From Bilabrum cf. latius (Eukaryota): a stretch of DNA of 64,000 nucleotides. Made by a program: the position numbers and the translations under genes. The DNA is taken from the NCBI GenBank assembly GCA_965178125.1, contig OZ237770.1, forward strand, positions 1 to 64,000. Reading direction: 5' to 3'. Position 1 is the first letter of the stretch; each line of letters opens with the position of its first letter. This document shows, one piece after another, positions 29,503 through 30,693 of the stretch. Under the pieces are notes generated by a model that saw only the letters and a list, made by a program, of their open reading frames with translations, was not told the DNA's origin and searched no databases.

Positions 29503-30693
29503 TCAGGCAAAGTGGATGTCGGCCTTGTTGAATGCGGCGAGCAGCTCTAGCAAGTCGTCGATCGAGAGCCCTGCAGCCCTGCTCTTCTCGTGACCGGCCC
29601 CTCGGAGCACCTCAGTGATCTTGTCTCGCATGGCACTCAGGTGGGGCACCATGGACCCGCGGGATGGGCGGGTCCCTCGGCTCATGCGCCCCACTGCGGC
29701 ACTGCTGCCATCCATGTCTGCATCTGATGCCTCATCCTTATCATCCTCGTCGTCCTCGTCCTCGGCAGCCTCCATGGAGCTTGCACCGCCCGTTGCTGCG
29801 CCCGACACCGCGCTAGCTGCCTTAGAAACACGATCCAAGTCGGCAATCCAGCTGTCACCGGCAGTTACGGCTGCCCCCGCTGTCTCTGACCCTCCTGCCA
29901 CCGCTGCGCCACTCCCACGGGGCTCACCAACCCCTCCAGCCGCGAAGGCCTTGCGCTTGATCGCAGCGAAGGTCCGGTGATTCTCGTGGAGTAAACGCAG
30001 CGCCGACTTTGACGTCAGTGCTGCTCTGAGCGTCTTGTGCTTCCGCTGGAAGAGGAGCCGCACGAGACCATCCCACTCTATGAAGTTGACGGGTGGCGGC
30101 GGGTTCCTCGGCTCGATGCGGACCACCCTGGACTCTACCTTGGGGGGCGGCCGAAAATTGTTGCGGCCGACTCTCATGAGCTAGTCTACCTTTGCGAGCA
30201 GTTGCGTATTGACAGACAGTCTGCAGTACAGCTTGTCCCCTGGCTTGGCGGACAGCCGCAGAGCAAACTCCTCCTAGAACATGAGCACGGCGCATCGAAA
30301 CAGCGGCCTATGAGCAAGAAGCTTGAACACAATCCCACTCGAAATGTTATACGGAACATTGGCAACGCATACGTTAAAGAATGGTAATCTAGATCGCAGA
30401 ACGTCCGATTGAACTATGGACAAGTGTTCAGCGCGAGGCTGCCCCTGCACTCTCTTCGTGAGCTCTACTACCATCCTTGGGTCGACCTCTACGGCAACAA
30501 CACGTTTACACTTCGGCAACAGCTTCATTGTCATGTTTCCAGTCCCAGGGCCAATTTCGAGCACTGTATCAGTGGGTTTCAGTGCGGACCTCTACACTAT
30601 TGAATCGACCACCAACGGGTTTTTCAAGAAATGCTACCCTTTCGATTTGTCGGCAAGTGGCCCTGGCGTCCTGGCTCGCTTAACTTTCGGCAT
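29503..30693 (-). CDS. DIM1: 18S rRNA dimethyladenosine transferase Dim1 (396 aa with TAG=Gln)
   Basis: MPKVK...[60 protein letters not shown] at 30634, 30592, 30274 and 30181; ends TGA. Confidence 0.95.

Follow-up and report, generated by a model that had tools for sequence, protein, structure and literature searches.

In-frame TAG codons in a Dim1 gene and its neighbors suggest that UAG encodes glutamine in a flagellated eukaryote

TAG is very probably a sense codon that encodes glutamine in the organism analyzed here. The window (the whole stretch of DNA that was analyzed, 64,000 nucleotides) would best be explained as nuclear DNA of a flagellated eukaryote with a G+C-rich, intron-poor genome, in which UAG is translated as glutamine, and we hold this explanation with high confidence. 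The gene on which the analysis centers codes for a homolog of Dim1. It would be a normal, expressed and functional gene in which two near-invariant glutamine positions (90% and 98% glutamine among homologs) and two other positions are written as TAG. Given that TAG is glutamine, the change probably concerns UAG alone (the type of NCBI table 15).

The Dim1/KsgA frame, as obtained by translation of the window, extends from 30693 to 29503 on the minus strand and consists of a single exon of 396 codons from the first ATG to a TGA. It contains four in-frame TAG codons (codons 20, 34, 140 and 171), no TAA and no internal TGA. The remaining two frames of its strand have 18 and 16 stop codons, with all three kinds represented. 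The gene and its TAG codons are:

29503..30693, minus strand: coding sequence of the Dim1/KsgA protein (predicted 18S rRNA adenine dimethyltransferase), assigned from the translation, Pfam RrnaAD and human DIMT1
30634..30636, minus strand: TAG codon 20, in the G-Q-H motif (GGG TAG CAT TTC TTG AAA AAC CCG); Q in 94 of 105 non-gap homologs
30592..30594, minus strand: TAG codon 34, in a variable column (E 30, D 28, A 15 and Q 8 of 108 homologs; uninformative)
30274..30276, minus strand: TAG codon 140, in the M-F-Q motif (ATG TTC TAG GAG GAG TTT GCT); Q in 143 of 146 non-gap homologs
30181..30183, minus strand: TAG codon 171 (H 68, Q 21, L 17 and R 12 of 145 homologs)

This region encodes a member of the KsgA/Dim1 family, which from its sequence is predicted to be the 18S rRNA adenine dimethyltransferase. 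For profile and PDB comparisons, it was translated with X at the TAG codons. The match to Pfam RrnaAD (PF00398) has an E-value of 2.4e-59 and 201 bits (cut-off 24), with residues 16-230 aligned to profile positions 6-227 of 263. At E-values up to 0.001, 35 distinct PDB sequences are matched, among them human DIMT1 (6w6c, 3.7e-110), yeast Dim1 (6rbd, 5.6e-84) and a Plasmodium sequence (8.8e-68). Human DIMT1 is colinear with residues 12-245 and 348-396, without a frameshift. The second of these segments, the C-terminal domain, corresponds to human residues 265-313 and thus reaches the last residue of human DIMT1, and the TGA comes right after the residue that is aligned with it. The glycine-rich EIGPGTGN motif and the N-x-P-Y motif are in register with human DIMT1 (for N-[LIV]-P-Y, ANVPYNISS as compared to ANLPYQISS in the human protein); we take EIGPGTGN, which would be SAM-binding, and N-x-P-Y to be the catalytic motifs. 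An initial annotation of this DNA had described the catalytic motifs as intact and the frame as free of frameshifts, and both statements hold. It had also quoted two TAG-containing strings, which are exact in their letters and coordinates on the minus strand (TAG at 30636-30634, codon 20, and at 30276-30274, codon 140). These two sites stand, but the gene has four TAG codons, those at codons 34 and 171 having been missed.

The protein resembles KsgA/Dim1 enzymes in being colinear over its full length and in having the conserved motifs, but differs from human DIMT1 and yeast Dim1 by a low-complexity insert of about 100 residues (residues 246-347), which is rich in Gly, Ala and acidic residues. 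Residues 266-396, insert included, have an 88% identical counterpart in a fragment of 130 residues (P0087) that stems from a public assembly, so that a close relative evidently exists. Two metagenome homologs that are among the locally closest (P0093 and P0104) have their predicted start at a Met that is aligned with residue 138, just upstream of the invariant Gln 140, as would be expected if an in-frame stop codon or an intron had cut off the 5' part of the gene. On the DNA level, the GAC/GAG/GAT-rich, acidic part of the insert (29741-29766) is a site of loose contig ends in all four sequencing runs described below, and run contigs show a 20-letter false join from this site to 31589. Loose ends and false join are attributed to low-complexity sequence that is common to other loci and are not a feature of the gene.

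In-frame TAG codons also occur in an acid phosphatase, a cation channel and a protein kinase:

15069..15071, minus strand: TAG in frame within one exon of the intron-containing gene for an ACP5-type purple acid phosphatase; Q in all 5 of the mammalian chains that were shown
41352..50579, plus strand: four-domain voltage-gated cation channel of 3075 codons with 26 in-frame TAG codons, closed by TAA (Ion_trans 1.7e-172, GPHH)
48150..48152, plus strand: channel TAG codon 2267, in HHG-x-P; Q in 120 of 120 matches and in the Cav1.2/1.3 chains
48048..48050, plus strand: channel TAG codon 2233; Q in 98 and F in 22 of 120 matches, and Q in the Cav1.2/1.3 chains
31082..33163, plus strand: protein kinase with 9 in-frame TAG codons and colinear transcript contigs

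The channel gene (41352-50579, plus strand) is apparently intron-less, has four Ion_trans stretches and a GPHH domain, and carries most of its 26 TAG codons in long low-complexity linkers. The genes for CFAP20 and Ola1/YchF (55300-58551, plus strand) both have introns, and their conserved exons are without an in-frame TAG.

Over the 13 long frames of the window, which comprise 10,829 codons across 50 kb, 75 TAG codons are in frame, and neither UAA nor UGA occurs as a sense codon (0 TAA, 0 TGA). The two other frames of these 13 contain TGA 172 and 217 times, TAG 110 and 84 times, and TAA 31 and 54 times. When TAG is read through, there are 66 frames of at least 200 amino acids, one of which has 3075, as compared to 39 under table 11. 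The presumed glutamine codons of the 13 frames (n = 493) are CAG (297), CAA (121) and TAG (75). If TAA related to TAG as CAA does to CAG (121:297), the probability of encountering no TAA along with 75 TAG codons would be about 7e-12 (our own arithmetic). It is because of this probability, and of the count of 0 TAA versus 75 TAG, that we consider the change to be restricted to UAG. The initial annotation had made no remark on the absence of TAA from the coding frames, which is what makes the change UAG-only.

The closing codon is TGA in 12 of the 13 frames and TAA in the remaining one, that of the channel, where a TGA follows 8 codons on; this tally is approximate, as the frame at 34397-36595 is cut by introns and not all of the 13 frames are whole genes. 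The frames of eL22, CFAP20 and the acid phosphatase also close with TGA, so that among the 16 frames examined, TAA closes a single one and TGA the others. TGA is the usual stop codon, and TAA is either a rare stop codon or unused.

These numbers bear on a code in which both UAG and UAA are read as glutamine (UAR, NCBI table 6) and in which TAA merely happens to be rare in the window. According to excerpts of two surveys, this is the commonest variant among eukaryotes (PMC11687900, PMC5304391). It would also be compatible with the scarcity of TAA as a frame closer, given that the only frame closed by TAA encounters a TGA 8 codons later. The coding frames, however, speak against it. A glutamine codon TAA would have to be absent from frames with 75 TAG codons, at the probability given above, and when frames are read from TGA to TGA, no TAA is added inside any coding frame. 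We thus regard a joint change of UAG and UAA as unlikely.

The frame ends also bear on an ambiguous code, as in Condylostoma or Blastocrithidia, in which UAG would be glutamine inside genes and a stop codon near their 3' ends. Such a code might be suspected from the clustering of TAG toward the ends of two frames, the channel having five among its final 60 codons and the kinase two among its final 16, and homology defines the true C-terminus only for Dim1. In that one gene, however, the TGA is positioned exactly at the conserved C-terminus. All of the 16 frames examined continue to a TGA or TAA and none needs TAG as a stop codon, and the tail of the channel contains ordinary CAG and CAA codons for glutamine as well. 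An ambiguous code is, in our view, quite improbable.

The identity of the residue was deduced from the Dim1 homologs. An exhaustive HMMER search of 1.84 billion representative proteins with Dim1 resulted in 22,752 matches at E-values up to 0.001, and the best 150 of these were aligned with Dim1 to count residues at the TAG columns. Columns with at least 75 residues were considered well-filled (n = 279). Q reaches at least 80% in only two of them (columns 20 and 140), each of which is written as TAG in the Dim1 gene of the window. For at least two of four TAG codons to fall into glutamine columns, the hypergeometric probability is 1.5e-4. Summed over the four TAG columns, the log-odds are +12.1 bits for Q, followed by H (-2.8), R (-6.6), K (-8.4), E (-8.9) and S (-10.1), while Leu ranks below these six. 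To control for the method, sense codons occurring at least three times in residues 1-250 of Dim1 were scored in the same way. The standard meaning was returned for 36 out of 38 such codons, the misses being CAG and CAC. The proposal of the initial annotation that TAG occupies conserved glutamine positions of Dim1 is borne out by these counts, with glutamine as the best-fitting residue by far. It had named a dominance of Leu, Glu or Tyr in the TAG columns as an outcome that would refute this reading; the column counts remove that objection.

Codes in which UAG is translated as Ser, Leu or Glu have been published for other lineages, as stated in an excerpt of a review (PMC11687900). We considered that TAG may be a sense codon for another residue (Glu, His, Leu, Ser or Tyr), each of them a meaning that UAG has, or could conceivably have, in other organisms. 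Some columns point in this direction. In the full set of 150 homologs, columns 34 and 171 of Dim1 are not dominated by glutamine, with E or D prevailing in column 34 and H in column 171. In the latter, the residue varies with relatedness, however: Q is found in each of the 10 homologs with the highest similarity within +-30 residues (local identity of 87-95%), and H in more distant ones. In the channel, five TAG codons are located in the conserved region of domain IV. Two of these (codons 2233 and 2267) are in glutamine columns, and the other three are in a column with V in 117 of 120 matches, a column with I/L in 117 of 120 and a mixed column (in animal channels, column 2213 is V and column 2404 is I/L). 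The matches are poorly aligned at these three columns. Furthermore, the 120 channel matches are only about 23% identical and nearly all are animal L-type channels, so that they are not independent and amount to about one observation each way. With this reservation, the TAG at 48150-48152, for which the initial annotation had cited support from HHG-x-P, coincides with Q in every match. The acid phosphatase TAG that it had likewise listed (15071-15069, minus strand) also coincides with Q, though the five mammalian ACP5 chains represent one lineage. A kinase TAG that it had added (32870-32872) is present in the sequence, but the three PDB alignments shown end before its column. The TAG columns of the kinase are, in general, variable or beyond the alignments shown and are uninformative on the residue. 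With the two Dim1 columns, the nearest homologs at column 171, the acid phosphatase and two channel sites all having glutamine, and with log-odds that are negative for H, E and S, a residue other than glutamine is very unlikely.

Transcription of Dim1 was assessed with Logan contigs from four runs of four studies (X1, X5, X6 and X7), which were compared with positions 22000-41999 of the window. Twelve joints are listed. Eleven of these are bounded by GT..AG or CT..AC and are confined to X6 and X7, 10 being common to both and one specific to X7, while the contigs of X1 and X5 run straight through the introns and show none of these joints. The twelfth is a 20-letter low-complexity join in X1 and X5. 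We take X6 and X7 to be spliced cDNA because the intron-type joints occur there and never in X1 or X5; their labels read "RNA?" as a guess and, for X7, "probably DNA", and none of the runs listed is recorded as RNA. The complete Dim1 gene is contained in one transcript contig:

29330..30880, minus strand: Dim1 transcript contig (X6 record 19, 1551 letters), with 0 other letters and 0 gaps

The gene is also covered in X7 (record 25, 29009-30839). These contigs match the gene without differences. To the extent that contigs can reveal it, Dim1 is thus expressed and unspliced, and its mRNA keeps the four TAG codons, which are removed neither by editing nor by splicing. The kinase is represented similarly by X6 record 20 (30969-33152, 0 other letters), in which its nine TAG codons are kept. 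Next to Dim1, the highly expressed gene for ribosomal protein eL22 (28736-29330, plus strand) converges on it (29330-30880, minus strand). The eL22 gene has an intron (28815-29008), the stop codon TGA (29258-29260) and no TAG. The 3' ends of the two genes probably overlap or abut, because one X7 contig spans both.

The transcript data also weigh on the idea that this copy of Dim1 is a dead or silent pseudogene and that a TAG-free paralog does the work, the lack of expression having been named by the initial annotation as a possible refutation. The transcript contigs with intact TAG codons take this objection away. Moreover, the frame is devoid of frameshifts, TAA and internal TGA and has intact motifs, and the same TAG-only pattern is seen in 13 frames over 50 kb. 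There is no second Dim1 copy in the window. Among the best 120 of 4341 matches in a search of 5.8 billion proteins, none is a near-identical full-length Dim1, the best being 76% identical. A pseudogene is thus a highly improbable explanation. Hardly any credence can be given to artifactual TAG codons, arising from assembly or sequencing errors or reverted by RNA editing from TAG to CAG, as the four runs from four studies (two DNA-like, two cDNA-like) list no differing letter and no indel over the 20 kb.

If UAG is read as glutamine, a tRNA-Gln with the anticodon CUA would be expected to decode it, and eRF1 would be expected to no longer recognize UAG, by analogy to other lineages with the same code. 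In the window, no tRNA gene or member of another Rfam family was found, and the gene for eRF1 does not lie there either.

The window is located at a chromosome end, since it starts with 99 copies of CCCTAA. After this terminal (CCCTAA)99, the subtelomere (1-14100) contains at least seven internal blocks of 35-300 CCCTAA copies, which alternate with a 155-base satellite in about 4-7 copies; a 167-base repeat unit occurs twice. This may either be a real array of telomere-plus-satellite modules or an effect of the assembly. The genes have a G+C content of 0.53-0.65 and are mostly single-exon, with few GT..AG introns of 87-235 bases. Flagellar markers are present in the window (CFAP20 and one protein each with a TPH and a BART domain). 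An open frame at 61985-64000 (plus strand) runs off the window and contains 8.6 copies of a 96-base (32-residue) repeat (62492-63313). On the 3' side of this repeat is a stretch that, by eye and without a Pfam match, resembles the start of a retroelement reverse transcriptase. Another frame comprises 803 amino acids.

As to relatives, the named matches of Dim1 among the best 120 of 4341 come from diatoms, Triparma and oomycetes (66-71%) and from green algae and echinoderms (63-65% each). Those of Ola1 are chytrids, Mucoromycota, animals and one oomycete, and the named best matches of the two proteins thus disagree. The best PDB matches of eL22 are eL22/L22 chains which, judging by their entry codes, are presumably from animal ribosomes. 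A scan of JGI metagenome contigs for DNA of a close relative returned six loci with 39-70% identity, none of them close. In Ola1, the last exon is matched at 80% identity by a protein from a JGI metagenome (P0395), a second indication that public data contain relatives.

According to excerpts of PMC11687900, PMC5304391 and PMC9161772, a change of only UAG to glutamine is known from the fornicate Iotanema spirale, the ciliate Protocruzia tuzeti and two phyllopharyngean ciliate lineages, and the eRF1 of Iotanema has a changed GTS motif. The code of the window is like these in that UAG is glutamine, UAA is not a sense codon and UGA terminates. It is, however, found in a different setting from that of the ciliates: the window has a (CCCTAA)n end, many genes with a G+C content of 0.53-0.65, and GT..AG introns. 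Telomeres of ciliate macronuclei are of the C4A2 or C4A4 type. Both the telomere repeat of the window and the make-up of the genome would speak against a ciliate host. Dim1, which evolves slowly (75% identity to some proteins, E-value of 3.7e-110 to human DIMT1), would argue weakly against a fornicate-like host.

UAR codes have been attributed to many ciliates, ulvophycean green algae, Hexamita, Streblomastix and the aphelid Amoeboaphelidium protococcarum, as far as covered by excerpts of PMC11687900, PMC5304391 and PMC6299283. They share the change from stop codon to glutamine with the window but differ from it by their use of TAA, which is absent from its coding frames (0 versus 75 TAG). For Amoeboaphelidium, TAG and TAA are reported as glutamine in excerpts of PMC6299283 and PMC5304391, and its genomes have 40% G+C (Table 1 of PMC10608142). 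An aphelid had been a serious candidate because the named best matches of Ola1 are from chytrid fungi and animals. Amoeboaphelidium itself was set aside, given 40% G+C as compared to 53-65% in the window, where TAA is not a sense codon. Reassignment of UAG alone is also a feature of the codes of the green alga Scotinosphaera (Ser) and of an uncultured rhizarian and some ciliates (Leu), as mentioned in an excerpt of PMC11687900. These codes are similar in that only UAG is affected but differ in the residue, Ser scoring -10.1 bits and Leu being outside of the six best in the Dim1 gene of the window.

Full-text searches brought up no fitting report of a code change; subscription papers (e.g., a 2025 paper on Heterolobosea) are outside of this scope. 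The code itself is of a known kind, possibly in a new lineage. It is tempting to speculate, albeit tentatively, that UAG-only reassignment to glutamine arose independently here, with UGA as the near-sole terminator and UAA essentially unused, in a host outside of the ciliates, the fornicates and Amoeboaphelidium, from a lineage without a published code change. For practical purposes, annotation with the standard code would truncate or split most genes, given 75 TAG codons in 13 frames over 50 kb, and would cut the channel 26 times. In excerpts of PMC11687900 and PMC5304391, UAG and UAA are described as nearly always changing their meaning together, and cases restricted to UAG are few. Such cases bear on how eRF1 distinguishes UAG from UAA, and a further one from outside the ciliates, for which a chromosome-scale assembly and transcript data exist, would lend itself well to studying this question.
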